Sequence record: OR352938.1
Origin: Escherichia phage AV108
Reading direction: 5' to 3' (one strand)
Length of the DNA: 64,000 bases
Part shown: one piece after another, positions 7,051 to 57,488 of the stretch
Position numbering within the stretch: position 1 is the stretch's first letter
Layout: the number at the start of each line of letters is the position of its first letter
Made by a program: the position numbers and the translations under genes
The notes under the pieces: generated by a model
The model's database searches: none
Seen by the model: only the letters and a program-made list of their open reading frames with translations
What the model was told of the DNA's origin: nothing

Positions 7051-7527
7051 TTATTTTTCTTGATGCTCGCGATCGTACTTTTCGAAATAAAATTCTACTG
7101 GCTGGTCGTGGATTGACAGCAAGCCAAAGCGTTTAGCCGCTCGCAATCCCATATTGCGCTGAATGTACTTCTGGAAGTTCTCGCGTATACACTTACGCCA
7201 GGATTCTAAGCCCATGCAGCTTTTATAAAGATTGCATTGCACACATGCCGGATTCATGTTATCAAGTATATCATGCTCCGGTTTATGCATTCCTACAACC
7301 TTATACTTCCACGATCCATCATCATTACGGGCAATTCGTCCATTTTCATCATAGACAACCTTTGAGCGTCGTAATACTGGTTTGATATGGTCTGCGTGCC
7401 AGCGATCCCCTAGTTCCTCGCCACAATAGGCACAACGTCCACCGTATTTCATTTTCAGGATCTGACGTTGCTCTTTCTTTGACAATTTTTTAGGTTTAGG
7501 GGCTTTCGCCCCTTCATTATCACACAT
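7051..7527 (-). CDS. HNH endonuclease-domain protein
   Basis: CxxC ... HADHIKP ... CVQCN zinc-finger HNH pattern; starts immediately after the ligase stop. Confidence 0.6.
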   Translation of the reverse strand: MCDNEGAKAPKPKKLSKKEQRQILKMKYGGRCAYCGEELGDRWHADHIKPVLRRSKVVYDENGRIARNDDGSWKYKVVGMHKPEHDILDNMNPACVQCNLYKSCMGLESWRKCIRENFQKYIQRNMGLRAAKRFGLLSIHDQPVEFYFEKYDREHQEK

Positions 7528-9016
7528 CGAATACCTCTTTTACTGTATTTGCAGCGGTCTTGTCGTAGCGAATACGTTTGATGATCGGGAGAAATAAAGA
7601 GAACTCCGGTTCATCTTCTTTACGTGATTTGCTGCGAATGTACCCGTTGCATGTCATCTCGATGACTTTTCCAATCAGGTTATGACGGTCAGCCCATAAC
7701 ATTTCTCGGTCAAGTTCATTTCGACGATCGAACGGAATTACACGTTCGATACCATCATCACCTTTTTCGGTTGTAGTGTCGGTTAATCCCGATCCGGTGT
7801 TAGTCATCATTCGTCCACACGCACTACGGACAGTAAAACCGCCTACCTTATTGGGGTCTTTACTATGCGGATATACATCAACAATTTCCGCGTCGAAGTC
7901 AATCACTTCTTTAAATTTAACCTGATCTTTACTACGGCGATCTTCAAATACACCATGTAAATTTTTAAGGATAATACCTTCTAAGCCCATGTTGACATAA
8001 CGATGATATACTTCGCGAGCTTCATCGATATTGTTAACTACAGTGTTTTCGATGATCTGAACACGAGGATCGTTAAGTTCTTCAACAATCTGTTTTAGTT
8101 CTTCAAATCGATCTTTATATTGCTTCGTTGCTTTCTCGTTTCCGTAGTACACATCACGGTCGATAACATCCCAGACAGTGTAAACAATACATTGGGCTTC
8201 TTCTTTTGGAATAGTTCCTTTCAGTGATTTGTTGAGGATACCATTTCCGGTCTGACGGTCTGCAACAACGGATTCTTTCACTGCTTCCGCTACTGGCGTT
8301 AATGGCATTTCCTCTTCTTCAAATATCCATGACAGAGTACCATCATAAACGCTCTCAACGAAGTTCTGCGCTGGTGTTTGCGAAAGGGTAGGCATATATA
8401 CCAATTCACCATCTAGAACAATTCCACGGCCTCGTAGACGCTCTAAAACCGCAAACAAATCATCAAGTCCTTGATAGGTATTACCTGAGCGGGTATAGAT
8501 TGCTAATGTTTCCCCGTCAATATCAGCCATACCACGAGCGCCATCGCTTTTAAGTTGTGCATACGCCGGATACTTGATATTAGCAATAGTCTTATCAGAA
8601 CATGACGATGCAAGGTGACACGGTTGCTGGGGGATCAGTTTCTTCCATACCTTGTTTGCAGTGGTAGCGGAACAACCACATTCCAGATCACGATTCAGGA
8701 CCATCATTGCAACTTTAGCATCATCTTCTGACAAGCAAGTCAGAGTATCGGTAACTAGCTGTAATGCTGCGTTACCAGTTACTTGACGCGTGGCAAGTTT
8801 ATTTTTAAAGACCTGTAATGCACCGGATAAAGACAATACAGACGAATAGCGAGATGGTTTATCGTATTTCTTTACGCCAAACGTAACCTGTTTGCAATAT
8901 GCCAGATAAAAGCATTCTTTCAGTGTTTCATTGCTTGCAGATTCTTTCAGGATCTTTTCTTTCAGCGATGTTTTGTCGGTCGCTGCAAGCTGGTTAATGA
9001 TATTAAGAATTGACAT
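7520..9016 (-). CDS. 30: ATP-dependent DNA ligase
   Basis: collinear with the T4 ligase sequence as recalled (KADGAR active-site region, EGIILKN, C-terminal TVKEVF); ATG at 9014-9016 with GAGGTG RBS, ORF track extends to a GTG at 9022. Confidence 0.9.
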   Translation of the reverse strand: MSILNIINQLAATDKTSLKEKILKESASNETLKECFYLAYCKQVTFGVKKYDKPSRYSSVLSLSGALQVFKNKLATRQVTGNAALQLVTDTLTCLSEDDAKVAMMVLNRDLECGCSATTANKVWKKLIPQQPCHLASSCSDKTIANIKYPAYAQLKSDGARGMADIDGETLAIYTRSGNTYQGLDDLFAVLERLRGRGIVLDGELVYMPTLSQTPAQNFVESVYDGTLSWIFEEEEMPLTPVAEAVKESVVADRQTGNGILNKSLKGTIPKEEAQCIVYTVWDVIDRDVYYGNEKATKQYKDRFEELKQIVEELNDPRVQIIENTVVNNIDEAREVYHRYVNMGLEGIILKNLHGVFEDRRSKDQVKFKEVIDFDAEIVDVYPHSKDPNKVGGFTVRSACGRMMTNTGSGLTDTTTEKGDDGIERVIPFDRRNELDREMLWADRHNLIGKVIEMTCNGYIRSKSRKEDEPEFSLFLPIIKRIRYDKTAANTVKEVFDV

Positions 9017-9482
9017 TTTCACCTCGTTTTGTTAAACGTTCACGAATATCATTGAGGATACTACAAAATTCCGATTCAGTCAATATAGTCTTTAACGGAT
9101 CAGTTCCACCTATGCTATGACGCAATTTCTTATTTCCGGTAGCGAGTAATGCTTTACAAAATTCTGGGTTATTCCGTGCCATCGTAACAAATGCCAGATG
9201 TACCAGTCTGTAATAATGCTCACTCATTCGATGAATAGGGCGACCCTGAAAATATAACATGTGATTCTCAATCTTTTCAGTTCTTCCGGTTCTTTTTGCT
9301 TTGCCACCGTGCATCAAAAAGATTTCTCTTTGTCTCTGAGGGTTCTTAAATCTTAGCCCCTGTAAAAATCCTTCTGTGCTGTTAATATCGCAACCAAATA
9401 GACGGAATGGTCTTTTATTGAAATTACTCAATTCACCCGATGGATAAGGTCCACCCGCATAGATATCAATTTCAGAAGTCAT
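9003..9482 (-). CDS. NADAR (YbiA/DUF1768-like) domain protein
   Basis: by-eye similarity to E. coli YbiA: SNFxxxPF, T.E...Q..KF, LLATG, GG.D...ILT...N.LG segments. Confidence 0.55.
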   Translation of the reverse strand: MTSEIDIYAGGPYPSGELSNFNKRPFRLFGCDINSTEGFLQGLRFKNPQRQREIFLMHGGKAKRTGRTEKIENHMLYFQGRPIHRMSEHYYRLVHLAFVTMARNNPEFCKALLATGNKKLRHSIGGTDPLKTILTESEFCSILNDIRERLTKRGENVNS

Positions 9483-9636
9483 TGAAACTAATCTCGCTAA
9501 TCAGAGAGAACGGATCATAATCGTCATTAGGAATATCGATAGTAATCGAATGAGGGTTTACCCATACACCAAACTGGTCTTCTTCGGTTAATACTTCGGT
9601 ATGGATTTCGTGGATGTTTACATTCATAGTTTTCAT
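9472..9636 (-). CDS. small protein (54 aa), below the ORF-track cutoff
   Basis: ATG 9634-9636 with AAGGAAA RBS; stop overlaps the NADAR start by 11 nt. Confidence 0.35.
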   Translation of the reverse strand: MKTMNVNIHEIHTEVLTEEDQFGVWVNPHSITIDIPNDDYDPFSLISEISFNDF

Positions 9637-9719
9637 AATAAAATTTCCTTAATAATCAATAACTTACAAAATCATATAGTCAAAATATAGGCGGGATTAT
9701 TTCCCGCCGTTTAAAATCA

Positions 9720-10043
9720 TTAACCGTAAACTACCACAATATTCTGTTTGTGTGTTACAGTCCATTTCAGGTCGATCTCTTCTTCCTTCTTAACGCCGTT
9801 AATAACGTCTGGATGAGGAACTTTATTCATCTTGCCATGTGGCAGTAGAACAGTTTTACCCAGCAATTCTTTATCTACAGTCTCGCCAATATCAATAATC
9901 TTACCTACCAGCGGAATCTCACCCATAGTGCGCTTTTGCTCAATAATGATCCCCATAGAGCTTTTTACTTCGGTCCCTGCGCTTTCTGCTTTCGCTTCGA
10001 TAATTACATAATCACCAAGTGCTTTAGGAGTTTTAACGGTCAT
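9720..10043 (-). CDS. 31: GroES-like co-chaperonin
   Basis: 107 aa, GDYVII ... VPHP pattern resembling T4 gp31; position between cd and 30 as in T4; followed by hairpin 9691-9710. Confidence 0.65.
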   Translation of the reverse strand: MTVKTPKALGDYVIIEAKAESAGTEVKSSMGIIIEQKRTMGEIPLVGKIIDIGETVDKELLGKTVLLPHGKMNKVPHPDVINGVKKEEEIDLKWTVTHKQNIVVVYG

Positions 10044-10084
10044 AATTTTATTACCTCTTCAAATCAATACAGTTTAACGATGAA

Positions 10085-10405
10085 TTATTTATAAATTTCG
10101 ACGATCTGCGCTGGAGTCAGCCCGTCCACATTAATCAGACTATCAAGCCCAAAACTACGGAAACCTTCAACTGCAATTTCATATACTGGCAAAGATGTTT
10201 CTGATTCTTTACGCGGTTTTTCAACATTCGGAACTAACCACTTTTCGTATGTTTCGAAAGGCATCAGTGCCGGATCTCGCGTGGCGATCATCTCGCGGAC
10301 AGTACCATCTTTCTTAGTAAACTGCAAAGAGTGAGTACCAACCGAAAACATTTTCTTTAGTGCTTCACGAAGTGCGATATTATCAATTTGTTCGGTCATT
10401 ATCAA
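10085..10405 (-). CDS. hypothetical protein
   Basis: 106-aa ORF between cd and 31. Confidence 0.45.
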   Translation of the reverse strand: MIMTEQIDNIALREALKKMFSVGTHSLQFTKKDGTVREMIATRDPALMPFETYEKWLVPNVEKPRKESETSLPVYEIAVEGFRSFGLDSLINVDGLTPAQIVEIYK

Positions 10406-10898
10406 TACCCTTCAAATCTGTCAATAATGCTTTTGGAATACGCGTGATCGTAATATCTGCATTATTCAGAATATCAGCCCAATCACGCCCACCATTTCGA
10501 TCATATGTGTCGCAATAGTATAGATATTTAATTCCACTGTTTGCAATTGCTTTAGCGCAATCTGGACACGGTGAAGCAGTACACCACATACTAGCGCCTT
10601 CAATCGATACACCGCTACGGGCAGCAAACAAAATAGCATTTAATTCAGCGTGGATCTCGTTTTTCTGTGACCATGCACTATGCTCTGGTCGTTTTTCTGG
10701 GATCATTTTGCCGTCATCATCCAGCCAACCGTTTTTATGTGCATGACAGCTACAATTTACTTGCCCTGCTGGAGTTCCGTTAAATCCAGTAGAAATGATT
10801 CGCCCGTCTTTTTCGATCAGTGCGCCTACCTTCCACGAAACACATTTAGAGTTCTTTGCGATCAGATAGGCGATCTGCATGTAAGTTTGTGACAACAT
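10383..10898 (-). CDS. cd: dCMP deaminase
   Basis: HAELNAI and SPCPDCAKAI zinc-binding deaminase motifs; collinear with T4 Cd as recalled. Confidence 0.85.
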   Translation of the reverse strand: MLSQTYMQIAYLIAKNSKCVSWKVGALIEKDGRIISTGFNGTPAGQVNCSCHAHKNGWLDDDGKMIPEKRPEHSAWSQKNEIHAELNAILFAARSGVSIEGASMWCTASPCPDCAKAIANSGIKYLYYCDTYDRNGGRDWADILNNADITITRIPKALLTDLKGIDNDRTN

Positions 10899-10919
10899 AA
10901 TATAATCCTCACATATTAA

Positions 10920-11123
10920 TTAACCGTATACGCGAAAGTATTCTACTGATCCGTCGCTATACTGTTTTACATTGAATGTATTCACACCATGATTATTTCT
11001 CATGATGACATATACACTGCGACGTTCATCGCTAAACGGCATAACTGGCGCTGGTTCAATATCAACACTAAAACCACGTTTAGCAAGTGCTTCGCCTAAT
11101 TGCTTGAGTTTATCGGTAAACAT
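10920..11123 (-). CDS. hypothetical protein
   Basis: 67-aa ORF between pseT and cd. Confidence 0.4.
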   Translation of the reverse strand: MFTDKLKQLGEALAKRGFSVDIEPAPVMPFSDERRSVYVIMRNNHGVNTFNVKQYSDGSVEYFRVYG

Positions 11124-12001
11124 TAAAATTCTCCGTAGTTAACCTGAAAACATTCTACACCAATTGAGCGGTACATGTCAACCACTTGATCACGGTCATC
11201 TACCGCCAAAACAACATGATAACGCGGTGCAATTTCAGAGAAGAAGATCTCTTTCTTCACTTCATGATCAGGACGACGATCATTAGTTTCACGTTGAAAG
11301 TGATCACTAGGTTCAATACCCTGTTCACGCAACCATTGCAGAGTATCTTCTTCGCAAACATCTTCGCGTCCTGAGCATGTAATGATACGATAACCATTAT
11401 CACGATACAGTTTAAGCATTTCGATCACTTGCGGACGCGGTTTATCTTCTTTGACCTTTGTCCAGTCAAACGGATGACGACCGCCCTTATCCGCTAATGT
11501 TCCATCAATATCAAAGATCACTGCCTTCGGCAGCATGGTATTCGGTTTGTATACTTCTTGACCCATATATTCCTGCATCAGATAAAATTGGTTGCGCAAA
11601 TGAGAAAGTGGGATTGCTTTCTCTCCGCGATAGAAATTACGTTTCTTTAGTGTCTCAAATGATTCATTGAACACTTGTTCAGTATACACCGCGTTAAATT
11701 CTTTTGCAAGTTCTTTGTAGAATACACGATGTTTTTCTTTCAGGTTAGTATCAGAGATAATGATACTAAATCCGCGTGATAGAGTCTCACGAGCAATCAT
11801 TCTCTGAATAGACTCTACCAGCTTTTCTTTTTCCTTAGTATACTTGTATTTCAAATGTGAGTCAACACCAAACAACATAAGACGAAGATCATCACGATTC
11901 ACATTACGATAATTACTAAACCGTTTACATGTTTCCATAGCCCATGTAGTTTTACCAGACCCAGAACAACCAACGGTTAAAATCACTTCACATTTCGGCA
12001 T
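11123..12001 (-). CDS. pseT: polynucleotide 5'-kinase/3'-phosphatase
   Basis: Walker A GCSGSGKTTWA, DxDGT phosphatase motif (VIFDIDGTLA), C-terminal GVECFQV; start taken at ATG 11999-12001 (MPKCEVIL) by alignment to T4 Pnk; ORF track 11123..12022. Confidence 0.9.
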   Translation of the reverse strand: MPKCEVILTVGCSGSGKTTWAMETCKRFSNYRNVNRDDLRLMLFGVDSHLKYKYTKEKEKLVESIQRMIARETLSRGFSIIISDTNLKEKHRVFYKELAKEFNAVYTEQVFNESFETLKKRNFYRGEKAIPLSHLRNQFYLMQEYMGQEVYKPNTMLPKAVIFDIDGTLADKGGRHPFDWTKVKEDKPRPQVIEMLKLYRDNGYRIITCSGREDVCEEDTLQWLREQGIEPSDHFQRETNDRRPDHEVKKEIFFSEIAPRYHVVLAVDDRDQVVDMYRSIGVECFQVNYGEF

Positions 12002-12333
12002 TATTTCTCCTTCGGTTTGCACCGTTCCTCATTAATTTCTTTTCGATAATAACACATGATCAACTTACTTTCAAGTGTATATCTCTTAATATCCGCAAGC
12101 CAGACTCTGAATTTTTGGGAGTCCTCCCACGACATAGAAACTCTAGGTTTACCGTCTATTGTATCCACTTTCAGGTCAATGTCAACTTTTTCTATTGGTG
12201 CTGGTAGTGGAGGATGTAATTTCGGTTCCTGTGAATAATGGTCCATTGTACACGAAGAAAGCGCAAATACAATAGGCACAGCGAAGACGTGGATTATGGC
12301 GGTCTGGAAATTCTTATGTGCTTTCTTAAACAT
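12001..12333 (-). CDS. o-spanin-like outer-membrane lipoprotein
   Basis: from ATG 12331-12333: MFKKAHK n-region, hydrophobic core, lipobox LSSC; lies next to pseT where T4 has its spanin pair; the ORF track extends upstream to 12453. Confidence 0.5.
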   Translation of the reverse strand: MFKKAHKNFQTAIIHVFAVPIVFALSSCTMDHYSQEPKLHPPLPAPIEKVDIDLKVDTIDGKPRVSMSWEDSQKFRVWLADIKRYTLESKLIMCYYRKEINEERCKPKEK

Positions 12334-12449
12334 CCAGTGTATCACGAAAATTGAAAACACCATCAGGATAATAATGCTTGCACCTATCCACAGATAATCA
12401 ACCAGATTAAAATTGCTTATCTGCTCTTGTGTAGGCAATATTTCTATGC

Positions 12450-12773
12450 TCATTTAGTAGCCTCCTTTAATTCTTCGGTAAACTCCTTAAATGAGTCATT
12501 AAGCTGTTTCTCTACCAACTTGGGTTTTTGTGCTACTACATAGCCTCGTGTAGCGTCTTTCATTGCTTTGTTTTGTTCTTCCGCAAACTTAGTTCTTATT
12601 CCATACATCTCCTTTTGTAGTGAGTCTACGACCTTCATCTTTTCATCGGTCTTTTTCTTATACTCTGTAAATTCCTGATTCAGTCGATCTACCTCCTTTT
12701 TATTTTCCCACCACATATTACCACCTACCCCTAGCAACACAGAGATGATAACAATGTATATCAGCTTTGACAT
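12450..12773 (-). CDS. i-spanin-like protein
   Basis: from ATG 12771-12773: N-terminal TM LIYIVIISVLLGVGG then charged coiled-coil-like sequence; ORF track 12450..12824. Confidence 0.5.
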   Translation of the reverse strand: MSKLIYIVIISVLLGVGGNMWWENKKEVDRLNQEFTEYKKKTDEKMKVVDSLQKEMYGIRTKFAEEQNKAMKDATRGYVVAQKPKLVEKQLNDSFKEFTEELKEATK

Positions 12774-12817
12774 ATTACCCCCAACGACAAAAGGCGGGGA
12801 ACTAGCCCCGCTTATTA

Positions 12818-13987
12818 TTACCAATCAATCTTATCAGCCGGAATAAGTTTCTTATAATTCCGTAGATAGTAAGTTTTCATTGAATCCAGAATACGGTCAT
12901 AATCAAGACCATCAAATGCAATCATCAGACACATGAAAATATATGCTTGTGCATCACCATGTTTACGTGATTCGATAGTCGCATTGGATGCATATGTCTT
13001 TCTGTCTTCTCCCGCGTGTGCGTTATAAAATTCTGTTGCTGTCGTGAAGGCATTGCGAAGAATAGACCTGAATGCTTCCTCGAATAGCTCGATTCGTTCC
13101 AGTGCTTCCGGTTCGCCTTCATATGCAGCACGCAAATCATCGGTTTCGCTTTCTACGACATAGTAGATCAGGTTATTAGGAAACATCGATGTGTTTTTAA
13201 TGTTATGCACACCAATATACCATTCACTCTTCACTTTGAACATTTGACCGTCTTTAGTGCGTGCAACAATTCCTTCGATACCTTCTGCGGTCCGAACTTC
13301 ATCAAGAATATTGCTAAAACGCGCTGAATCAACCTGTAACGCATTTACCAGATGAGAACGTAGGATTGCGTCAGCAAATAGCATTTGATGCGGTACGTAC
13401 TCTCCTGTGACGTTATGGCGTACATTCAGAAGTGTTAGCGACGGTTCAGAATATTCTACAACAATTCGGTTGCTGGGCGCTGTATATTCAAAGTTGAAAG
13501 TATAATCAGACCCAATATCAGCAATCTTAGCGCGTAGATCCGCATACTTCTCTGAATACAGAAGACCGTTTGCTCTCTCTGCCTGGCTTGAGTACAAGGC
13601 CGCTTTAGACTTCAACTGAACATAGCCGTTATCAATGTAGGTGCTTACTAGACTACCGTCCATTTTGTCCATGACCATTTCCACATCTTCCGGCTTAAAG
13701 CGAGCGCGATCATTCTCGCCTAAATTAAAAAACTTCTCCATAGGACGAGATGCAATGCGGACCGGACGACCTTTATCGTCAATTTCAAACATGATCCCGC
13801 GACACTCTAACGCATCTGGTTTATTCCACATTTCCGGTTTGCTCAAGTACAGATAACTAAAAATGCGCATACGGGTTTGCATCGCCGTAATTTCATCTTT
13901 GTAATAGAACGTATCAGATCCGTCACATAGTGCCATCAGATTTTTGAACAATGCTAAAACTTTTTTGTTGTTTTCTTTTGTTGACAT
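12818..13987 (-). CDS. rnlA: RNA ligase 1
   Basis: near-identical blocks to T4 Rnl1 as recalled: PDALECRGIMFE, PVRIASRPMEKFFNL, FNFEYTAPSNRIV. Confidence 0.9.
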   Translation of the reverse strand: MSTKENNKKVLALFKNLMALCDGSDTFYYKDEITAMQTRMRIFSYLYLSKPEMWNKPDALECRGIMFEIDDKGRPVRIASRPMEKFFNLGENDRARFKPEDVEMVMDKMDGSLVSTYIDNGYVQLKSKAALYSSQAERANGLLYSEKYADLRAKIADIGSDYTFNFEYTAPSNRIVVEYSEPSLTLLNVRHNVTGEYVPHQMLFADAILRSHLVNALQVDSARFSNILDEVRTAEGIEGIVARTKDGQMFKVKSEWYIGVHNIKNTSMFPNNLIYYVVESETDDLRAAYEGEPEALERIELFEEAFRSILRNAFTTATEFYNAHAGEDRKTYASNATIESRKHGDAQAYIFMCLMIAFDGLDYDRILDSMKTYYLRNYKKLIPADKIDW

Positions 13988-14384
13988 AATTTGTGTTCCA
14001 TTCTGGTTTAAATTTGGTGATCAAAACAGGTTCTTCGATATCGGCAGTGCTTATAATATCCTTACCCGTTGGATTCTCGATGTACAACTCAAAGCACTGT
14101 CGGTAATAGAATGTTACTGTCTTACCTTCCTCTAGCGCCTTATGAATATTCTTACTCTTGCGAGTATCCGCTGTTGGTGTTTGTCTGTTAATGCTAGTCC
14201 GGTAATAATTGATCCGCTTTCTGAGATTGACAGTCTGACCAATGTATACCAGTTCATCATCAACAACAATAGCGTAAAGAACATTTAAACGGTTCTTCTG
14301 AGGCGGCAGAATCACATCACCATCTTTACACTCTAAACATGAATATTTAACGAATCCATAGTTTTCTATTAGCTCATTAATCAT
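13923..14384 (-). CDS. denA: GIY-YIG nuclease, endonuclease II-like
   Basis: VLYAIVV-N6-VYIGQT followed by RKR; size and position after nrdB fit T4 denA; gene symbol by position. Confidence 0.5.
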   Translation of the reverse strand: MINELIENYGFVKYSCLECKDGDVILPPQKNRLNVLYAIVVDDELVYIGQTVNLRKRINYYRTSINRQTPTADTRKSKNIHKALEEGKTVTFYYRQCFELYIENPTGKDIISTADIEEPVLITKFKPEWNTNYVNKRKQQKSFSIVQKSDGTM

Positions 14385-14434
14385 TATCCTTTCCTCACGT
14401 CACAACAAAGGCGGGATTTCTCCCGCCCACCTTA

Positions 14435-14833
14435 TTAACTTTCCAGAATATCGCGAGCTTCGTTACGCTCCTTGATGATTTTCAGGACAAATTCCAGTTT
14501 TTCTTTGTTCAGCGTTCCATTTTCCATTGCTTCTTTGACGGTAAACACTCCGCCACCTTGCCCGTATACAGTGACAGTGATTTCACCTAACATCGTGGTA
14601 TGAAAACCGCCAATTTTCGGTGATTCGAAAGAAACAATTACCTCGCGAACAGTATTACCGTCGTTGATTTCTGAGAGGGTAATGTCGTTTTTGTAGGCGG
14701 TTGCTTTAACCATACGGATCAGCATAGTCTGATCTGGGGAGATGGTCATTTTGTCCATTGCATGTTGCAATGCAGCGTAACCGAAAACTTTAACGAAGTC
14801 CAGAACATCTTTGCGAGTTTGAAATTTAATCAT
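14435..14833 (-). CDS. hypothetical protein
   Basis: 132-aa ORF; hairpin 14411-14428 downstream. Confidence 0.5.
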   Translation of the reverse strand: MIKFQTRKDVLDFVKVFGYAALQHAMDKMTISPDQTMLIRMVKATAYKNDITLSEINDGNTVREVIVSFESPKIGGFHTTMLGEITVTVYGQGGGVFTVKEAMENGTLNKEKLEFVLKIIKERNEARDILES

Positions 14834-14903
14834 CTTGATACTCCTTAGTTGTTTTGGTATGGGAGTATCTTACTAAGTATCTTACTACTCCCCAACTGCT
14901 TTT

Positions 14904-15053
14904 TTATGCAACCGCAAACATCAACATTTGAACATTCTTGGCTGTCTGGCTTTCAAAGTTCTGACATTCTTTGATAATGTCCTCTACTTTCTCGCCGGAG
15001 ATCTCCGCGTAAGTTTCGATTGCCATTTTCAGTACCGCGTCAAAGTTGTTCAT
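14904..15053 (-). CDS. small protein (49 aa), below the ORF-track cutoff
   Basis: ATG 15051-15053 with GGAGAATCAA leader; promoter 15086-15114. Confidence 0.35.
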   Translation of the reverse strand: MNNFDAVLKMAIETYAEISGEKVEDIIKECQNFESQTAKNVQMLMFAVA

Positions 15054-15085
15054 TTGATTCTCCTTTGTTTCGTTTCGATGGGGGT

Positions 15086-15114
15086 ATATTAATACCCCCG
15101 TTATTCAGTGTCAA
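15086..15114 (-). promoter_or_regulatory. sigma70-type early promoter
   Basis: tgtcaa 15109-15114, TAATAT -10 inside palindrome GGGGGTATTAATATACCCCC. Confidence 0.5.
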
Positions 15115-15121
15115 CTACTTT

Positions 15122-15394
15122 TTACTTGTTGTATTCATTCCACCATTGGGTGAGCTTATCAATTATTTTTGTGTTTCTATCCAACTTATCCCACCGTTTT
15201 CGAGGGTTTATCAACCGTAATAGGTAAGGTGTACTTGTTAAGTGAACTCGGTCAATATAGTGATTGATGTACTGTTTTTCGATTCTAAGTTTCATCTTTT
15301 TACGATGAAAATATGCAATGACTTGTTCTTCTGTTTCCATATGTTCCTCCGTTTCGATGTGTATTATGCTATGGCAAGATCCGATTGTCAACAC
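15122..15394 (-). CDS. hypothetical protein
   Basis: ORF track 90 aa; the promoter at 15363-15391 lies inside the 5' end, so the real start is probably the internal METEEQ. Confidence 0.4.
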   Translation of the reverse strand: MLTIGSCHSIIHIETEEHMETEEQVIAYFHRKKMKLRIEKQYINHYIDRVHLTSTPYLLRLINPRKRWDKLDRNTKIIDKLTQWWNEYNK

Positions 15395-15438
15395 CCAATA
15401 ACAAAAAAGTCGCCACTATGGGCGACTTTGAACAAACA

Positions 15439-15915
15439 TTAATCATGACCGTGATTTGCAATGTCCGCTCGCGTCTTATCTTTGTGATTTCCTACGTCAA
15501 AGACACGATAACCATTTTCACGCAAAACTTTAATCACTTCTGGGTTATCCTCAAAGACTCCGACAACTTCATCTTTATCAAAGGATTTAATTACCTCTAA
15601 TTTGATGTGATAGTCTTTACGGGAATCGGTACGGCCTCTCATAAAGATTTTATCAAAACACACCCCGTTAGAAATTAACCAATCAATTGTTTCCATGTAA
15701 GCATGTGAACTTCGTCCGGTGAGGATGTAAATCAAATGCCCGTTGTCGGAAAGAGCATTAATAACACGAATTACATCGTAAATGGGGGAATCTCCCCCAC
15801 ATGCCTTGTTATATTCGATCCATGACTCGACTTTATCAAGATTTTCGGTTGGCATCTTTGCTAGTCGATGTGTTGGATCTGTGATCGTAAAATCTAAATC
15901 GACAAAATATATCAT
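15439..15915 (-). CDS. HAD-superfamily phosphatase-like protein
   Basis: N-terminal DxDxT motif (VDLDFTIT) and small size. Confidence 0.5.
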   Translation of the reverse strand: MIYFVDLDFTITDPTHRLAKMPTENLDKVESWIEYNKACGGDSPIYDVIRVINALSDNGHLIYILTGRSSHAYMETIDWLISNGVCFDKIFMRGRTDSRKDYHIKLEVIKSFDKDEVVGVFEDNPEVIKVLRENGYRVFDVGNHKDKTRADIANHGHD

Positions 15916-17078
15916 AGATATTTCCCGAATCGGTTGTAGTCGTCATCTGTTAAATCGGTATTAACCTGAGATACCAGATACATAATCTCTACTTCCTGCG
16001 CTGCATTCTGTACTTCGTCAGAGTTCAACCATTTACGCATCCACGGTAACGGATGACGACGAACACTAAACGGGCTTTTCAGTCCGGCAGCACGCATACG
16101 GGAATCTGCCAGGTATTCTACATAGGTTTTCAGAATTTCCGGTGACAGGTTAGGAATTGCCCCCATTGCGAATAGGTGGTCTACCCATTCTTTTTCTTGC
16201 TCGACAACATCCAGAAAGATTTTCGTTGCTTCGCCTTCAAGTTCTTCCGCAATCTGTTTCCACTCATCACCATCAACCCCCGTTTGCCATTGACGAATAA
16301 TGTATTGTGTGCCTTTTAAGTGAAGTTGTTCATCACGCGCAATAAATTTCATGATCTTCGCGTTACCTTCCAGTAAACCACGTTCGGCAAAGCTGAAAGT
16401 ACATGCAAAGGACACATAAAAACGAATTGCTTCCAGTGCATTGACGCAGTGTGCACACAGATAAATCGAAGCCATCAGATCTCGTTTTGTATCTTCAAAA
16501 AATCTTCTTGCATCATCTAATGCTGTCTGGTCGTCTCGTTCTTCCCAATAGCGGAGATCTTCTTTTGCATTCTCATACTTACGAATCCAATAAAGAACAT
16601 CATCATAATATTTCCCGATAGATTCCGCTCGCTTCATGATAGCAGGGTTATCGATGATCTGGTCGAACTCACTAGCCGGATCAATGAAACAGTTACGCAT
16701 AATGTGTGTATAGCTTCGGCTATGAATCGTTTCGCTGAATGTCCATGTTTGCAACCATGTATCGAGAGTTGGATCAGATACAATTGGACCAAATGCTGCG
16801 GACGGTGCGCGACCTTGAATAGAATCAAGTAATGTCTGATACTTCAAGTTTTCAGTAAAGAAACGCTTTTCAACGTCACCCATATTAAGATATTGAATAC
16901 GGTCGGTTGCAAGTGAAATTTCTTCGGGGCGCCAAAAAAATGACAGAGATTTTTCAATTAGTTCTTCAAATACTTGATGACGCTGAATGTCATAACGAGC
17001 GATACCTAAACCGCTACCCAGAAACATCGGTTCATTCATAATATCAACGTGTTCACGATTAAATACCGTATTTCCCAT
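15912..17078 (-). CDS. nrdB: ribonucleotide reductase small subunit
   Basis: collinear with T4 NrdB as recalled (VDIMNEPMF, ARYDIQRH, FFWRPEE); uninterrupted ORF, so no intron. Confidence 0.9.
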   Translation of the reverse strand: MGNTVFNREHVDIMNEPMFLGSGLGIARYDIQRHQVFEELIEKSLSFFWRPEEISLATDRIQYLNMGDVEKRFFTENLKYQTLLDSIQGRAPSAAFGPIVSDPTLDTWLQTWTFSETIHSRSYTHIMRNCFIDPASEFDQIIDNPAIMKRAESIGKYYDDVLYWIRKYENAKEDLRYWEERDDQTALDDARRFFEDTKRDLMASIYLCAHCVNALEAIRFYVSFACTFSFAERGLLEGNAKIMKFIARDEQLHLKGTQYIIRQWQTGVDGDEWKQIAEELEGEATKIFLDVVEQEKEWVDHLFAMGAIPNLSPEILKTYVEYLADSRMRAAGLKSPFSVRRHPLPWMRKWLNSDEVQNAAQEVEIMYLVSQVNTDLTDDDYNRFGKYL

Positions 17079-17753
17079 TCACATATTCCTCATTTTACAG
17101 TTATCAAAGTGCCATCGTAGAGCATTGCCTTTATTGGTAATTTTACCGCAATGCGGACAAGGATCTGCCACTGTTGCTTCCTTTGTCCTTTGTGCAATCA
17201 GCTTTATCATTTCCTCGCTATGTGGTATTCCTTTAGTTGGCGATGGTTTCCCAAACATAGGATTTTTACTTCCCATTCTAGCTTTTGAAATGTTTAACGC
17301 GTGCTCCTTTGTTTTTGGCTTACGCATTTTAGCTTTTGTCTCTTCTGATTTCAACACACCTTTCGAAGATTCGCTAATCTTTCTTCGCGTTTCTTCTTTC
17401 ATCGGCTTGCCCTTTCTTTGTTCAGAGATAAGTACCCTAGCTTGTTCATATACCCTAGACGAAACAATATAATCTCTTTTATTGGTCTTCGCATTTTTTG
17501 CTAAACACATCATACCAAATGCTTGTGCCATAGGTCCACCATGAATTTTTGCTAGCAGATGATGAATCACGAAATGTTCTTTTGCTGTCAAATCAATCAG
17601 GTTATCAACTTCATCACCGCCACCCATAGATCTCGGTAAAATATGATGTGTTTCCTTATATCCTTCAACGGTTCCTCTTATCTTTGCTTTTTCTATGATT
17701 GCGTCATGTAATTTTTGTAAGTTCATGAATAAATCCTCGTTTCTGTATACCAT
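17079..17753 (-). CDS. mobE: HNH homing endonuclease (MobE-like by position)
   Basis: HNH core THHILPRSMGGGDEVDNLIDLTAKEH; C-terminal basic repeats and CPHCG zinc knuckle; inserted between nrdA and nrdB exactly where T4 carries mobE. Confidence 0.6.
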   Translation of the reverse strand: MVYRNEDLFMNLQKLHDAIIEKAKIRGTVEGYKETHHILPRSMGGGDEVDNLIDLTAKEHFVIHHLLAKIHGGPMAQAFGMMCLAKNAKTNKRDYIVSSRVYEQARVLISEQRKGKPMKEETRRKISESSKGVLKSEETKAKMRKPKTKEHALNISKARMGSKNPMFGKPSPTKGIPHSEEMIKLIAQRTKEATVADPCPHCGKITNKGNALRWHFDNCKMRNM

Positions 17754-17823
17754 TATTTATCAGGTATCCAGAAGAAGGATTAATTCACCTCACCATTATC
17801 CTACAACCTCAAAACATTTATCA

Positions 17824-18027
17824 TCAGGAAGAATCGCCCATTCTACAACCGTATTCATCCTCGACGTAGTAGCAAGTCCCATCATGTCGAGCATCATATT
17901 CATCACCAACAACAAAGCTATCAGCTAGCTCAAAATCTACAGCAACACATTTTAATTTGGTCATAATAAAATCCTCACTTGTTTTTGATGGTTGTATTAT
18001 AGCGGGGATTTCTCCCCGCGTCAACAC
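17824..18027 (-). CDS. hypothetical small protein
   Basis: promoter 17996-18024 lies within the listed 5' end, so the likely start is the internal MTKLK. Confidence 0.35.
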   Translation of the reverse strand: MLTRGEIPAIIQPSKTSEDFIMTKLKCVAVDFELADSFVVGDEYDARHDGTCYYVEDEYGCRMGDSS

Positions 18028-18032
18028 TTATT

Positions 18033-20276
18033 TTACAGCTTGCAAGATGAGCACTCGCTAGCGTCTTCCGTACCATCAGCACCGTCGCGAACGTTCGCAT
18101 AATACAGGGTTTTCAGACCGTAATATTGAGCAAACAACATATCATCTAACACATCAGCAATATCGACTTTACCAGTCTTATAAGTGCTTGGATCGTATGA
18201 TGTATTGGAACTAATCGCCTGATCCACAAACTTCTGCATGATCGCTGCCAGTGTCAGATAAGGCTTGTTACCTTTCTTGATCAGTGTCCAAAGCAGGTCA
18301 ATAACATCAGCATTATTCTCTACGTTCGGAATAACCTGATTAAATTGCCCTTCTTTCGATCCTTTAACCGATACAATACCGCGAGGCGGTTCAATACCGT
18401 TTGTGCTGTTAGATACCTGAGAAGACGACTCACAAGGCATCAGAGCCGAAAGCGTACTGTTACGAATGCCATATTTTTTCAGGTCTTCGCGCAGTTCTTC
18501 CCAATCCATCTCATATACCGGATCAACCAGTTCATCTACTGTCTTTTTGTACCAGTCGATAGGCAGTTCACCGCGTCCATAACGTGTTTCGTGCATCAGT
18601 TCGCAAGCACCCTTCTCTTTAGCCAGTTGCACACTAGCCTTAATCAGAGCATATTGCAAGCGTTCAAACGTTTTATGCGTAAACTCGTTAGCGTCTTCAT
18701 ATGTGAAGAAATTATCCGCGAGATACGATGCAAAGTTAGTCACCCCAACACCCAGAGAGCGACGTTTTTTGGATGTCAGAGCTTGCTCTACAGGATAATC
18801 CTGGTAATCTAACAGGTTGTCAAGTGCACGCACCATAACCATAGCAATGCGTTCTACTTCTTCCATATTTTCGATATCAAAGTTTCCTAAAACATATGCT
18901 GCCAAAGTACATAGGCTGATCTCTGAATCATCACGACCCATCGGTTTTGTAGGCAGAGCAATTTCACAACACAGGTTGGATTGTTTAATCGGTGCTACAT
19001 TACGAATAAACGCCCCGTGATTGTTCATGTTGTCTGTGAACGTTGGGTAGATTCGACCAGTGTTAAAACGTTCAATTGCCACCGCTAAAAACAGGTCTTC
19101 GGCTTTAACACGAGTTTTACGAACACTCGGATCTTTTTCCAGTTTTTCGTAAAGCTGGCGGAAACCTTCCTCATCTCGGAAGTATAGATCCCACAACAAG
19201 CCACCTGCAACATCTGGACTAAACAGAGTAATGTAATCCCGTTTAAGGAATCGCTCTACCATCAGGTTATTAATCTGTACGCCGTAATCAAGATGACGAA
19301 TGCGGTTATCTTCCACCCCCTTATTGTTCTTTAACACAATCAGACTTTCAAACTCTAAATGCCACATTGGGTAATAGAGAGTCGCCGCCCCGCCACGAAT
19401 ACCGCCTTGTGAGCATGACTTAACGGCAGTCTGAAAATGTTTCCAGAATGGGATAACGCCAGTATGACGAACTTCACCATGCCCGATCTTAGATCCTTCC
19501 GCGCGAATCATGCCAGCGTTGATACCGATACCAGCACGCTTGCTAATATACTTGATGATTGCATTTGCTGTTTCGTTGATGCCCTGCAATGAGTCATCAC
19601 TTTCAATCACCACACACGAACTAAATTGGCGTGTTGGGGTACGCACACCTGCCATAATCGGAGTAGGCAGAGAGATTTGCTTATTCGCAACAGCATTATA
19701 AAAATCAATCACATGTTCAAGTCTATTTTCGGTCTCTTCTTGATGCAAGCACATACCGATCAGCATATACGCAAATTGCGGTGTTTCGATGATTTTCTTA
19801 GTGCTGCGATCCTGAACAAGATATTTCTCTTTTAACTGCATCGCACCAGCATAGGTCATTTTAAAATCAAGTTTATGGTCGATGAATTTCTCCAGATATT
19901 CCACTTCTTCACGGGAATACTTTTGCAGAATTTCGCGATCATATTTTCCGATTGCAATATTACGCTCAATATGGCTATAAAAATCAATAGGTTGGAATTG
20001 ACCGTATACTGATTTACGAAGCGCGAACATTGCAAGGTTACTTGCTACATATTGATAATCGGGTGTTTCTACCGTGATGTTATCTGCGGCGACCTTAATC
20101 AATACTTTCTGGATATCATTGGTAGACATACCTTCTGTCAGAAGTGGTTCAACCATATCAAACAATTCATATGGATCAACGTTATGACCTTCGGCTGCCG
20201 CTTCCAGAATTTTCATTACTTTTTCTTTTTCAAACGGAACAGTCAGACCGGAAGACTTAACAACATTTTTAATCAT
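18033..20276 (-). CDS. nrdA: ribonucleotide reductase large subunit
   Basis: 747 aa, long identical blocks to T4 NrdA as recalled (GVIPFWKHFQTAVKSCSQGGIRGGAAT, NSTLSALMPCESSSQVSNSTNG). Confidence 0.92.
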   Translation of the reverse strand: MIKNVVKSSGLTVPFEKEKVMKILEAAAEGHNVDPYELFDMVEPLLTEGMSTNDIQKVLIKVAADNITVETPDYQYVASNLAMFALRKSVYGQFQPIDFYSHIERNIAIGKYDREILQKYSREEVEYLEKFIDHKLDFKMTYAGAMQLKEKYLVQDRSTKKIIETPQFAYMLIGMCLHQEETENRLEHVIDFYNAVANKQISLPTPIMAGVRTPTRQFSSCVVIESDDSLQGINETANAIIKYISKRAGIGINAGMIRAEGSKIGHGEVRHTGVIPFWKHFQTAVKSCSQGGIRGGAATLYYPMWHLEFESLIVLKNNKGVEDNRIRHLDYGVQINNLMVERFLKRDYITLFSPDVAGGLLWDLYFRDEEGFRQLYEKLEKDPSVRKTRVKAEDLFLAVAIERFNTGRIYPTFTDNMNNHGAFIRNVAPIKQSNLCCEIALPTKPMGRDDSEISLCTLAAYVLGNFDIENMEEVERIAMVMVRALDNLLDYQDYPVEQALTSKKRRSLGVGVTNFASYLADNFFTYEDANEFTHKTFERLQYALIKASVQLAKEKGACELMHETRYGRGELPIDWYKKTVDELVDPVYEMDWEELREDLKKYGIRNSTLSALMPCESSSQVSNSTNGIEPPRGIVSVKGSKEGQFNQVIPNVENNADVIDLLWTLIKKGNKPYLTLAAIMQKFVDQAISSNTSYDPSTYKTGKVDIADVLDDMLFAQYYGLKTLYYANVRDGADGTEDASECSSCKL

Positions 20277-20344
20277 ATTACCTCACTTCATATTTTAGCA
20301 GGAACAAGTTTATCCTCCATATTGGGGGCTTTCGCCCCCTTTGT

Positions 20345-21577
20345 TTATACTGCCATTTGAGCGGTGATCGCTGGATGGCTTTGATAGTTGTGAATTTTAA
20401 AGTCTTTCGGAGTCTTTGTCAATACCTCATCTAAAGATTTAAATTCCGGCAACTCAATTGTTGGTTTATCAAACGGAACACGGCTTAACTGTTCCATAAC
20501 TTGATCAAAGTGGTTTTTGTAAATGTGAGTATCTCCACCAGAGAAAATCAGTTCTCCTACCTCAAGATCACACATTTTCGCTATGATGTGAGTTAACAGC
20601 GCATAGCTGGCAACATTAAAGGGCAAGCCCAAAAAGCTGTCTACGCTTCGCTGAAACCACATACAAGACAGTTTACCTTCATTGACGTAGAATTGCACGA
20701 AAGGATGACATACACCCAATACAGCATTATGTGTTCCTTGTACGTTCCATGAGTCAATAATGATCCGGCGATCCGTTGGATTGTTTTTAATTTGTTCAAT
20801 CACGTTTTGTAACTGGTCTTCCCAAATCTTCGGGCGATAGACATATTCTTCATCGTCTTTAGTGCTCGATGTGTCTACGTCCATACTAGCAAAGATCGTG
20901 GTATCTGGTGCTAAAATATCCCCACCCAGATAATCACTATCAAGTAGATAACCGAAATAACCATCATCTACCCATTCCTGGAATCCCCACAAGCAATATG
21001 CATCATTAACAAAATTAGATTGAGTCTTCCAGTGATCTGCTACTAAGAATTGATTATATTCAGAATCAAACTCTTCATAACGCATACCACGCCAGATAGC
21101 ACATAAACGGTCTTCTGTGTCGTTGGTTGGCGTAAAGTCTTCTACCCACGGGTGCTTAAATGTATGTGCATATTTGCTCTTAACGCGCTTAATTTTGATT
21201 TCACCGTGTGGATGAATCGGTTTGCGTCGCCATGCCATACCATACATATTGCCGACATTATAACCATTGAATCGCAAAGGATTCTTTTCTTTCATATCAA
21301 GACAGTTGCCGCGCCAAATGTCGAAGGCTTCTTCGTCAAACTTACCGCGTGTAATTTCCTGTAAGCGACGGCGGTCAAGTGATCCCTCCATAAACCATAG
21401 CAATTCGCCAATTACAGAGGCTGTAGCCATCTTTTTAGTGGTCAGTAATGGGAAACCCTTGCTTAAATCAATTCGCATCTCTGCGCCGAATTTAGAGAGC
21501 GTACCTACCCCCGTGCGGTCTTCACGAGGCCAGCCATTATCAAGAACATCACGCAACAGTTTCAAATATTCTTTCAT
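20345..21577 (-). CDS. td: thymidylate synthase with a large internal insertion
   Basis: TS motifs DRTGVGT, RRIIIDSWNV, CHPFVQFYV, GLPFNVASYALL, GGDTHIYKNH; about 115 extra residues between YGMAWR and EDQLQNV; continuous frame. Confidence 0.88.
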   Translation of the reverse strand: MKEYLKLLRDVLDNGWPREDRTGVGTLSKFGAEMRIDLSKGFPLLTTKKMATASVIGELLWFMEGSLDRRRLQEITRGKFDEEAFDIWRGNCLDMKEKNPLRFNGYNVGNMYGMAWRRKPIHPHGEIKIKRVKSKYAHTFKHPWVEDFTPTNDTEDRLCAIWRGMRYEEFDSEYNQFLVADHWKTQSNFVNDAYCLWGFQEWVDDGYFGYLLDSDYLGGDILAPDTTIFASMDVDTSSTKDDEEYVYRPKIWEDQLQNVIEQIKNNPTDRRIIIDSWNVQGTHNAVLGVCHPFVQFYVNEGKLSCMWFQRSVDSFLGLPFNVASYALLTHIIAKMCDLEVGELIFSGGDTHIYKNHFDQVMEQLSRVPFDKPTIELPEFKSLDEVLTKTPKDFKIHNYQSHPAITAQMAV

Positions 21578-22863: not shown

Positions 22864-22891
22864 ATTATACACTATTGCGTTACGCTGTCAA
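22864..22891 (-). promoter_or_regulatory. sigma70-type early promoter
   Basis: tgtcaa 22886-22891 and attata 22864-22869. Confidence 0.45.
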
Positions 22892-24058: not shown

Positions 24059-24088
24059 ATTTTTATCCTCCGTTGTTTCGATGATTGT

Positions 24089-24116
24089 ATTATACATTAC
24101 CACATCAGCATGTCAA
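24089..24116 (-). promoter_or_regulatory. sigma70-type early promoter
   Basis: tgtcaa 24111-24116, attata 24089-24094. Confidence 0.45.
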
Positions 24117-56378: not shown

Positions 56379-56897
56379 TTAGTAGCCGCGTTCTTGACGG
56401 GCGAAGTTTTCAGCATTTTTCAGATAGTACAGCTTGAAGATATCCTTAGCGGTTAAACCTAAGCCCAGCATTTTAATCAGCACAAAATGCCAGATATCGA
56501 TCAATTCCATCACAATTTCGGTTTTATCGTCATCTGACAGATCAGCAAATTTACGCGCTCGTGCTTCGCCGTGGTTCTTCTTCCACACTTTAGTAATTGC
56601 GCTTGCATCTTTGCCATTTGACATGCCACCCAGGGCAACATAAAGTTCTCGTGTCTCGTCGTCGATTGCGTCATCCCACAACTTCATCCAGTCAAGGATC
56701 TCCCCGCAAGTTTCCAGCTTATCAGGATGCATTACCCACTCAAATTTATCAGCTAGTGCGACCTGTAATCCTTTTTGCATATCTAACATTACTTGCAGCG
56801 GATCTTTACCGCTAGTGATTGCCTCGGAATACGCAATACCAGCTTTAGACATAGTTTCATCATTAACAAGACCAGCACAAGAATTAAATTCACTCAT
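56379..56897 (-). CDS. 56: dCTP pyrophosphatase-like all-alpha NTP pyrophosphohydrolase
   Basis: MazG-like ELIDIWHFVL helix, about 172 aa from ATG 56895-56897 with GAGAGG RBS; position next to 61 as T4 gene 56; ORF track to 56960. Confidence 0.6.
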   Translation of the reverse strand: MSEFNSCAGLVNDETMSKAGIAYSEAITSGKDPLQVMLDMQKGLQVALADKFEWVMHPDKLETCGEILDWMKLWDDAIDDETRELYVALGGMSNGKDASAITKVWKKNHGEARARKFADLSDDDKTEIVMELIDIWHFVLIKMLGLGLTAKDIFKLYYLKNAENFARQERGY

Positions 56898-56907
56898 AAT
56901 AAACCTC

Positions 56908-57471
56908 TCAAATAACATTAAACACTGCAAATTCACCGTGATACTTATACGCATAGTCATTATATACTATTGCGGCGTCTATTTCTAGGTCAAATTGTCC
57001 TATATAGACTTTATTTCCTTCATTGTCCCTTATCTGGGCGACCCATTTACCCGAACGACTATTATAATGCACTCCTTTAAAATTGCTAGTTTTAGTTTGG
57101 TTGTTTCTTCTCATATTTTGGGTATTCTGTTTTTGTGTCGCCTCTCTTAAGTTTGGAGGATCGTTGTTCTCTGGATTCCCGTCAATATGGTCAATGACAG
57201 GTGGGCAATACCCATGCTCTAAGAAGAATACTATTCTATGCACAAGCTCAAAATATTGTTTTCCTTCAAAAGAAAATGAGACTTTTAGGTGTCCGGCTGT
57301 GACTTTAGATACCTTTACTATATCACCAACCTTATAAAACTGGCCTTCTTTCGTCGTTCGGCTTGCTTTGCTGTTTGTTTTATGAATCAATATACCCCTT
57401 TCGTGTCTATATCTTCGACGTATTTCATCCTTTAATTCATCGCTCCATTCTTTGGCTTTCCTTACCCTCAC
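56908..57471 (-). CDS. HNH endonuclease with AP2 DNA-binding domain
   Basis: HNH core VHRIVFFLEHGYCPPVIDHIDGNPENN ... NLREATQKQN; AP2-like FKGVHYNSRSGKWVAQI ... YIGQFD ... AAIVYNDYA. Confidence 0.65.
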   Translation of the reverse strand: MRVRKAKEWSDELKDEIRRRYRHERGILIHKTNSKASRTTKEGQFYKVGDIVKVSKVTAGHLKVSFSFEGKQYFELVHRIVFFLEHGYCPPVIDHIDGNPENNDPPNLREATQKQNTQNMRRNNQTKTSNFKGVHYNSRSGKWVAQIRDNEGNKVYIGQFDLEIDAAIVYNDYAYKYHGEFAVFNVI

Positions 57472-57488
57472 AATACAACCCTCATTAA

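Follow-up and report, generated by a model that had tools for sequence, protein, structure and literature searches.

The window considered here is a stretch of 64,000 nucleotides (nt) from Escherichia phage AV108 (sequence record OR352938.1), in which four nuclease genes stand beside conserved genes of DNA metabolism: an HNH gene next to the DNA ligase gene, a GIY-YIG gene next to rnlA (RNA ligase 1), a MobE-like HNH gene between nrdA and nrdB, and an HNH-AP2 gene between gene 56 (dCTPase) and gene 61 (primase). Free-standing homing genes beside genes of nucleotide metabolism and replication are a textbook feature of T4-type phages, and an initial annotation of the window had regarded all four genes as mobile and their loci as likely sites of gene conversion between relatives. 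The four open reading frames (ORFs), all on the minus strand, were found at exactly the coordinates that it gave and with the neighbours that it named, and the nuclease domains were borne out for all of them by matches in Pfam, PHROG and the PDB structures; the fourth gene falls outside the span (7051-17753) under which it had been filed. The interpretation is correct for two of the genes and wrong for the other two, of which one proved to be no more than denA, the gene of endonuclease II. Very probably, the four genes are of two kinds, namely two active homing genes and two resident nucleases that are currently immobile.

Distribution of the nuclease genes in Krischvirus

A megablast search placed the window in the genus Krischvirus (RB49/JSE/Phi1-like, T4-type phages of E. 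coli), with about 58 GenBank records at 96-98% identity; this set comprises RB49, JSE, Phi1 and some 50 newer E. coli and Shigella isolates, and holds 6 GenBank/RefSeq duplicates and several near-identical isolates. As the relatives are this close, the comparison of presence and absence that the initial annotation had proposed could be run directly. The MobE-like and the HNH-AP2 genes are each found in 7 of the 58 records, and the ligase-adjacent HNH gene and the GIY-YIG gene in all of them (Table 1). Universal presence with conserved synteny, which the initial annotation had itself named as the finding that would count against mobility, is thus what was seen for the latter two genes and not for the former two. 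Base composition is unremarkable at all four. The uneven content of homing genes in this group has been tabulated before, with two putative homing genes in RB49, two in Phi1 and seven in JSE, in classes that include mob-like HNH, HNH-AP2 and 'other HNH' (Petrov et al. 2010, PMC2993671), so that the general claim of the initial annotation is published knowledge; GenBank already annotates the MobE-like and HNH-AP2 genes as homing endonucleases.

Table 1. Positions in the window of the four nuclease genes, the two cassettes and the tracts linked to them
Feature	Position	Strand	Remark
Resident HNH nuclease gene, 158 amino acids	7051..7527	-	HNH motif; 58/58 records; pN/pS 0.05
denA, T4 endonuclease II orthologue, GIY-YIG fold, overlaps rnlA start	13923..14384	-	PDB 2WSH, 2.6e-38; 58/58 records
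nrdB 5' tract, codons ~5-46, cassette-linked	16941..17066	-	13.9% divergence between carrier and non-carrier classes
MobE-like cassette delimited against RB49: leader, ORF, four new first nrdB codons	17067..17792		Alignment to RB49
MobE-like gene, predicted free-standing HNH homing endonuclease, longest ORF	17079..17753	-	Likely true start 17726
Gene 56 5' tract, codons 1-12, cassette-linked	56861..56897	-	P 1.1e-15; confined to the 7 carrier records
HNH-AP2 cassette, ~583 bp replacing 5 bp	56898..57480		Between gene 61 stop and gene 56 ATG
HNH-AP2 gene, predicted free-standing homing endonuclease, GTG start	56908..57471	-	HNH_3 and AP2; 7/58 records

Cassettes and linked tracts at nrdB and gene 56

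The MobE-like gene lies outside any intron, and its product combines an intact N-terminal HNH motif (HH..DN..H; HHILPRSMGGGDEVDNLIDLTAKEHFVIH), which aligns with solved HNH nucleases and with the N-terminus of T4 MobE, with two NUMOD3 motifs (Pfam, 6.8e-9). It matches phrog_655 'homing endonuclease' at 2.7e-56 and is 48% identical to T4 MobE over 232 amino acids (2e-75). The true start is probably the ATG at 17726 and not that at 17753, because JSE and PTE-Eco09 have stop codons within the nine-codon leader, the alignment with T4 MobE begins at residue 10, and a ribosome-binding site (RBS; AGAGGA) precedes 17726. The carriers are FL15, JSE (two records), PTE-Eco09, SSG23, SFHK24 and phiS, of which only phiS has both the MobE-like and the HNH-AP2 gene in common with the window. 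In every carrier the gene is intact, and the ratio of non-synonymous to synonymous polymorphism (pN/pS) among the carriers is 0.07.

At the corresponding junction RB49 reads GAGGTGAATTA|ATGAGC, and the cassette sits exactly at the bar: the RBS of nrdB (GAGGTGAATTA) is followed by the cassette and then by the nrdB ATG. The cassette itself ends with a new RBS and with new nrdB codons (MGNT). A plain insertion relative to RB49 was rejected for the window, in which 726 bp replace 358 bp; the underlying simple insertion is seen in phiS, PTE-Eco09 and SSG23, and the window, JSE and FL15 further lack the small paralogous upstream ORFs s2-s3. No direct repeats of at least 30 bp that could explain this deletion were detected in 14300-18200, and there is just a 23-bp similarity between s2 and s3 in phiS. 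Around both cassettes, a simple scan detected no terminator like that inside T4 mobE, and promoter-like sites were in no excess over the shuffled expectation. A near-consensus promoter (17996-18024, minus strand; TTGACG cggggagaaatccccgc TATAAT, the spacer being a GC stem-loop) stands ahead of another small ORF, s1 (17824-18027, minus strand), and resembles the promoter-stem-loop cassettes described for RB49-type phages. Relative to phiS, the window's s1 has a frameshift (+1 T) that alters its C-terminus.

The coding sequence downstream of the cassette differs between carriers and non-carriers. More specifically, an alignment of 10 genomes over window positions 14400-20400 contains 402 variable columns, 14 of which separate the two classes; all of these fall in 16946-17058 (nrdB codons ~7-45; P 1.5e-21 for their clustering among the variable sites), and 13 are synonymous changes. 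Here the two classes are 13.9% apart, as against 1.4-3% in every other segment, and polymorphism common to both classes resumes 11 bp past the tract. In the flanking genes the carriers do not form a clade: the nrdA sequences closest to that of the window come from kvi, a non-carrier, and FL15, a carrier (both 0.89%), and for the remainder of nrdB the closest is that of TB34, a non-carrier (0.39%).

The separating sites are densest in 16946-16959, four codons before the motif FFWRPEE, where carriers read AAA TCT CTG, the empty allele AAG CAA TTG (nt 121-129) and T4 CGG CAG ATC. MobE-dependent nicks in T2 nrdB map to nt 122-126, in codon 42, which is AAG in all mobE-less phages and lies four codons before the conserved FFWRPEE, and a bipartite MobE site has been proposed (Wilson & Edgell 2009, PMC2790892). 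At the level of homologous codons, the linked tract is therefore densest at the very site that experiments have defined for MobE.

A genus-wide search found the carrier-type tract in all 7 carrier records (97-98.5%), with most non-carriers at ~87% and an intermediate class made up of PHB13, KFS-EC, ELT3, LF73P4, JK32, Makalu_001-003 and E26. When the sequence was followed through the site in PHB13, KFS-EC and Makalu_001, an empty junction of the RB49 type was found together with a carrier-type block at the nick site, in mosaic tracts. The nrdA/nrdB slot of G2494 (L024 546-937) holds a different, 540-bp gene of the HNH-AP2 type, accompanied by its own nrdB changes at codons ~11-20; judging by the identity of their tracts, G5211 and G37-3 probably hold this rival gene too. 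At least two endonuclease families thus contest the slot, and nrdB is present among the isolates in four states: (i) empty and of the sensitive type, (ii) with the MobE-like gene, (iii) empty with a block of the resistant type and (iv) with the rival HNH-AP2 occupant.

The second cassette, between genes 61 and 56, encodes a protein with an HNH_3 domain (51.2 bits) followed by an AP2 domain, which at 29.9 bits is below the Pfam cut-off of 33.3; the AP2 call is supported by matches to plant AP2 structures (5e-8 to 4e-4), and I-HmuI was matched at 1.2e-5. The family is scattered over 830 phage records. Within the genus its carriers are G2494, ELT3, TB34, SAP, phiS and KFS-EC (two records), in every one of which the gene is intact, with a pN/pS of 0.15 among them. 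Where carriers hold the cassette, RB49 has the empty site AATGAGG TGAAT ATGTCA. The HNH-AP2 gene uses the original RBS of gene 56 (TTAATTAATGAGG), and the cassette brings a new one for gene 56 (GAGAGG). The true start of gene 56 is at 56897, and it therefore does not overlap the HNH-AP2 ORF.

Here, too, a linked tract adjoins the cassette. In an alignment of 13 genomes with 626 variable sites, seven sites separate carriers from non-carriers, all of them in 56862-56901 (P 1.1e-15), and the separating changes in gene 56 are synonymous (codon 2 AGT vs TCA, codon 9 CTT vs CTG, codon 11 AAT vs AAC, carrier first); the confinement of the carrier-type tract to the carriers (Table 1) extends genus-wide. 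Beyond its first ~12 codons, gene 56 (dCTPase/dUTPase, 56379-56897) occurs in two allele classes, one of the RB49b/MIZ/Makalu type and the other of the Phi1/ECD7/kvi/FL15 type, which are ~30% apart in nucleotides, with flanking genes that differ by only 1-4%. Conservation of the empty-site sequence extends to all non-carriers, whatever their gene 56 class. A candidate target for the HNH-AP2 enzyme, suggested by this pattern of polymorphism, would comprise the 61/56 empty site and codons 1-12 of gene 56 (empty allele, TTAATTAATGAGGTGAATATGTCAGAATTTAATTCTTGTGCTGGTCTGGTTA); we know of no member of the HNH-AP2 class with a mapped target site. The carriers all have one gene 56 class and are 0-0.4% apart in it (KFS-EC 2.5%), whereas their gene 61 differs by 1.5-4.8%. 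Such near-identity in gene 56 beside a divergent gene 61 is consistent with gene 56 having been dragged along with the cassette.

Upstream of gene 61, ECD7 and TB34 have an unrelated 577-bp HNH cassette, which is missing from the window (empty site 58519/58520); a single duplicated element in the two 577-bp cassettes that flank gene 61 was rejected, as only the HNH motif is common to them. In gene 61 of the window, 22 linked substitutions at nt ~60-138 (58380-58458) are common to ECD7 and TB34 and to no other genome, and the three linked sites nearest the upstream insertion point are of the empty type in the window. The 5' region of gene 61 looks like a conversion scar, that is, an endonuclease-linked tract without an endonuclease gene.

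The patchy distribution of the MobE-like and HNH-AP2 genes could arguably arise in the absence of homing, if they were ancestral and had been deleted in most lineages, or were single old vertical insertions, with the linked tracts as hitch-hiking ancestry. The one near-identical gene 56 allele in all HNH-AP2 carriers favours such a history, as does the variation of the small ORFs beside the MobE-like gene through the s2-s3 deletion. It is nevertheless improbable, given that neither nrdA, nor the remainder of nrdB, nor gene 61 groups the carriers as a clade, that shared polymorphism is back within 11 bp of the nrdB tract, and that the empty sites are precise to the base and do not differ between diverse backgrounds. 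Moreover, the changes in the nrdB tract are mostly synonymous and cluster at the known MobE nick site, and every carrier has intact copies that are under purifying selection, which fits active enzymes. That the two are active free-standing homing genes, moving by intronless homing of the MobE/Seg kind, is a well-supported prediction.

Resident nucleases beside the DNA ligase gene and rnlA

The ligase-adjacent HNH gene overlaps the stop codon of the DNA ligase gene by 8 nt (ATGTGTGA). Its nuclease motif is intact, with CxxC..HxDH..N..CxxCN complete (CAYCGEELGDRWHADHIKP ... LDNMNPACVQCNLYK), and it matches the Pfam HNH family (PF01844, 27 bits) and phrog_2118 'HNH endonuclease' (1e-54). Among the 58 Krischvirus records no presence/absence polymorphism was found: the gene occupies the same position in all, at 96-100% identity and always overlapping the ligase stop. 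Its pN/pS across seven genomes compares with 0.03 for the ligase gene and 0.02 for nrdA. Homologues beyond the genus are less than 50% identical and come mostly from siphoviruses; Morganella phage vB_Mm5 is the only other T4-like phage with a homologue, and its copy is not beside the ligase gene, so that the HNH-ligase synteny is confined to the genus. The gene probably entered the Krischvirus ancestor a single time, out of a mobile HNH family. It may be co-translated with DNA ligase, and it is probably now kept by selection for some phage function.

A more specific identity, as a resolvase of the endonuclease VII type or a terminase-associated HNH protein (HK97 gp74-like), is unlikely. PHROG has weak matches to 'endonuclease VII' families (4e-10 and 1e-6), the length of 158 amino acids resembles that of T4 gp49, and the nearest homologues outside Krischvirus are often close to the ends of siphovirus genomes, where terminase-linked HNH genes sit. 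However, the solved structures, which gave no specific match of any kind, include no T4 endonuclease VII or resolvase match at E of 1 or below, Pfam yields its generic HNH model only and leaves Endonuclease_7 unmatched, and NCBIfam and PADLOC, searched additionally for this protein, returned only generic HNH matches, all sub-threshold. In the window, moreover, the gene is coupled to the ligase and not to a terminase gene. The endonuclease VII (T4 gp49) identity was rejected, since neither Pfam nor the PDB supports what are only weak PHROG matches.

The GIY-YIG gene scores 22.5 bits in Pfam, just under the cut-off of 22.6, and matches phrog_1111 at 2e-52; T4 endonuclease II (PDB 2WSH) was matched over residues 3-134, with the catalytic Glu kept where the crystallized mutant has Ala (DIEEP vs DLEAP). 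The overlap with rnlA is constant in all records, and relatives annotate the gene as denA or endonuclease II. Across the same seven genomes its pN/pS is 0.08 (for the ligase gene and nrdA, see above). Purifying selection on denA and on the ligase-adjacent HNH gene is comparable in strength to that on the ligase gene or nrdA. The gene is listed in all T4 relatives other than the Acinetobacter phages and cyanophages (Petrov et al. 2010 Table 4, PMC2993671). Judged from its sequence, it is denA, a near-core host-DNA nuclease, and no homing gene. Two records deviate, namely PTE-Eco09 (L007 7501-7962), where denA has an internal stop and is annotated as two fragments, and JSE (L001 13286-13717), where there is a 1-nt indel within the denA/rnlA overlap; these defects reflect errors of sequencing or else rare disruption of a gene that is universal in all other respects.

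From their pN/pS and universal presence, the ligase-adjacent HNH gene and denA therefore behave as maintained resident genes, and since the genus has no empty site for either, there is nothing to home into. Specifically, denA should not be counted as a mobile element, and the ligase-adjacent HNH gene behaves as a fixed resident. The proposal of gene conversion, in turn, is supported at the nrdB and gene 56 sites, with their precise junctions, linked tracts and scattered carriers, and fails at the two universal genes with their fixed synteny. A reading in which each of the four encodes a mobile free-standing homing endonuclease, with marker exclusion and gene conversion going on at every one of these loci, is most improbable, even though the nuclease folds of all four are ones that homing enzymes use and the ligase-adjacent HNH family is patchy over unrelated phages, with its single T4-like homologue outside the genus at a different locus. 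As regards mobility within the genus, such a reading is already contradicted by two genes that are in 58 of 58 records with fixed synteny and a pN/pS of 0.05-0.08, and by the identity of denA as the orthologue of a T4 enzyme that almost every T4 relative has.

A fifth candidate free-standing nuclease is encoded at 22880-24103 (minus strand; 407 amino acids), with four CapR-homology zinc-finger domains (1.4e-29), a match to phrog_681 'endonuclease' (2e-100) and a C-terminus that by eye looks GIY-YIG/T5orf172-like. This gene lies in the kilobase of lowest GC content in the window (0.339), and its site varies among the relatives: 7 records have this allele at full length, in about 21 more there are partial or diverged alleles with little beyond the 3' end in common, and in one RB49 assembly the site is down to ~314 bp.

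Proposed homing at the two cassettes and its relation to known systems

For the MobE-like and HNH-AP2 genes, a common mechanism can be proposed. Each is a self-contained cassette, set precisely between the RBS and the start codon of the essential gene downstream of it. When a cassette-free relative infects the same cell, the enzyme would nick or cut the empty allele within the first ~40 codons of that gene, and recombinational repair from the carrier genome would copy the cassette together with a short flanking tract, whose mostly synonymous changes would destroy the recognition site and so render carriers immune. The MobE-like enzyme would act at the very position in nrdB where T4 MobE nicks T2. 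Cleavage, target sites, immunity and the direction of transfer are all elements that we infer from the sequence comparison.

Several points weigh against this two-kind interpretation. The proposed target sites and immunity are read from polymorphism only. All HNH-AP2 carriers fall into one gene 56 class, and a single insertion with linked inheritance is therefore harder to exclude there than at nrdB. At nrdB, the carrier-type nick-site block also occurs in ~9-10 of the 51 records that lack the MobE-like gene; the perfect segregation of the 14 sites is therefore a property of the 10-genome sample and has been dropped as a genus-wide rule, although empty alleles of the resistant type are to be expected from conversion tracts that end before they reach the cassette. 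Because of the duplicates and near-identical isolates among the records, independent genomes number somewhat fewer than 58. Finally, the ligase-adjacent HNH gene, whose family is scattered in unrelated phages, may still home against unsampled populations, and its class ('other HNH') has been counted among the putative homing genes of RB49, Phi1 and JSE (Petrov et al. 2010, PMC2993671).

A bolder proposal has two separate parts, and is put forward tentatively, as a possibility to which we give something short of even credence: that the first ~45 codons of nrdB in Krischvirus represent a natural, fully sampled 'homing cycle', and that the ligase-adjacent HNH protein is a domesticated former homing nuclease working with DNA ligase. 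If true, the homing-cycle part would make it possible to test directly how specific the targets are and how homing genes compete. In practical terms, the comparison yields two candidate targets, nt ~121-129 of nrdB in its empty form and the junction of genes 61 and 56 together with codons 1-12 of gene 56, and the natural sensitive-type, resistant-type and occupied alleles form a ready set for specificity tests of MobE-type or HNH-AP2 enzymes.

Intronless homing is known from SegF and SegG of T4, in which a free-standing endonuclease encoded by an essential gene's neighbour cuts the allele of a relative and flanking markers are co-converted. SegF also targets gene 56, from the other side of that gene, and belongs to the GIY-YIG Seg family, unlike the HNH enzyme described here. 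With T4 MobE, the MobE-like protein shares the architecture of an N-terminal HNH and C-terminal NUMOD3 motifs, a locus immediately upstream of nrdB and a patchy distribution. It differs in that its cassette abuts the nrdB ATG (TGAATG) and adds four N-terminal codons, and in that T4 mobE has an internal terminator, whereas a simple scan around the cassettes found no terminator-like site.

The two systems also differ in the DNA on which they would act, as the phages of the RB49 type are thought to carry unmodified cytosine (Petrov et al. 2010, PMC2993671). This bears equally on denA, which agrees with its T4 counterpart in the GIY-YIG core, the catalytic Glu and the neighbourhood (rnlA-denA-...-nrdB). 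Gene 42, denB and alc are missing from the RB49 type (Petrov et al. 2010, PMC2993671), so that the T4 logic of cutting cytosine DNA and sparing hydroxymethylated phage DNA cannot apply unchanged. The HNH-AP2 gene, for its part, resembles those of the RB16, RB43 and RB49 types in having an HNH_3 domain followed by an AP2-type domain, in being free-standing and in its patchy occurrence among close relatives (Petrov et al. 2010, PMC2993671), and its product has a structural relative in I-HmuI (PDB 1U3E).

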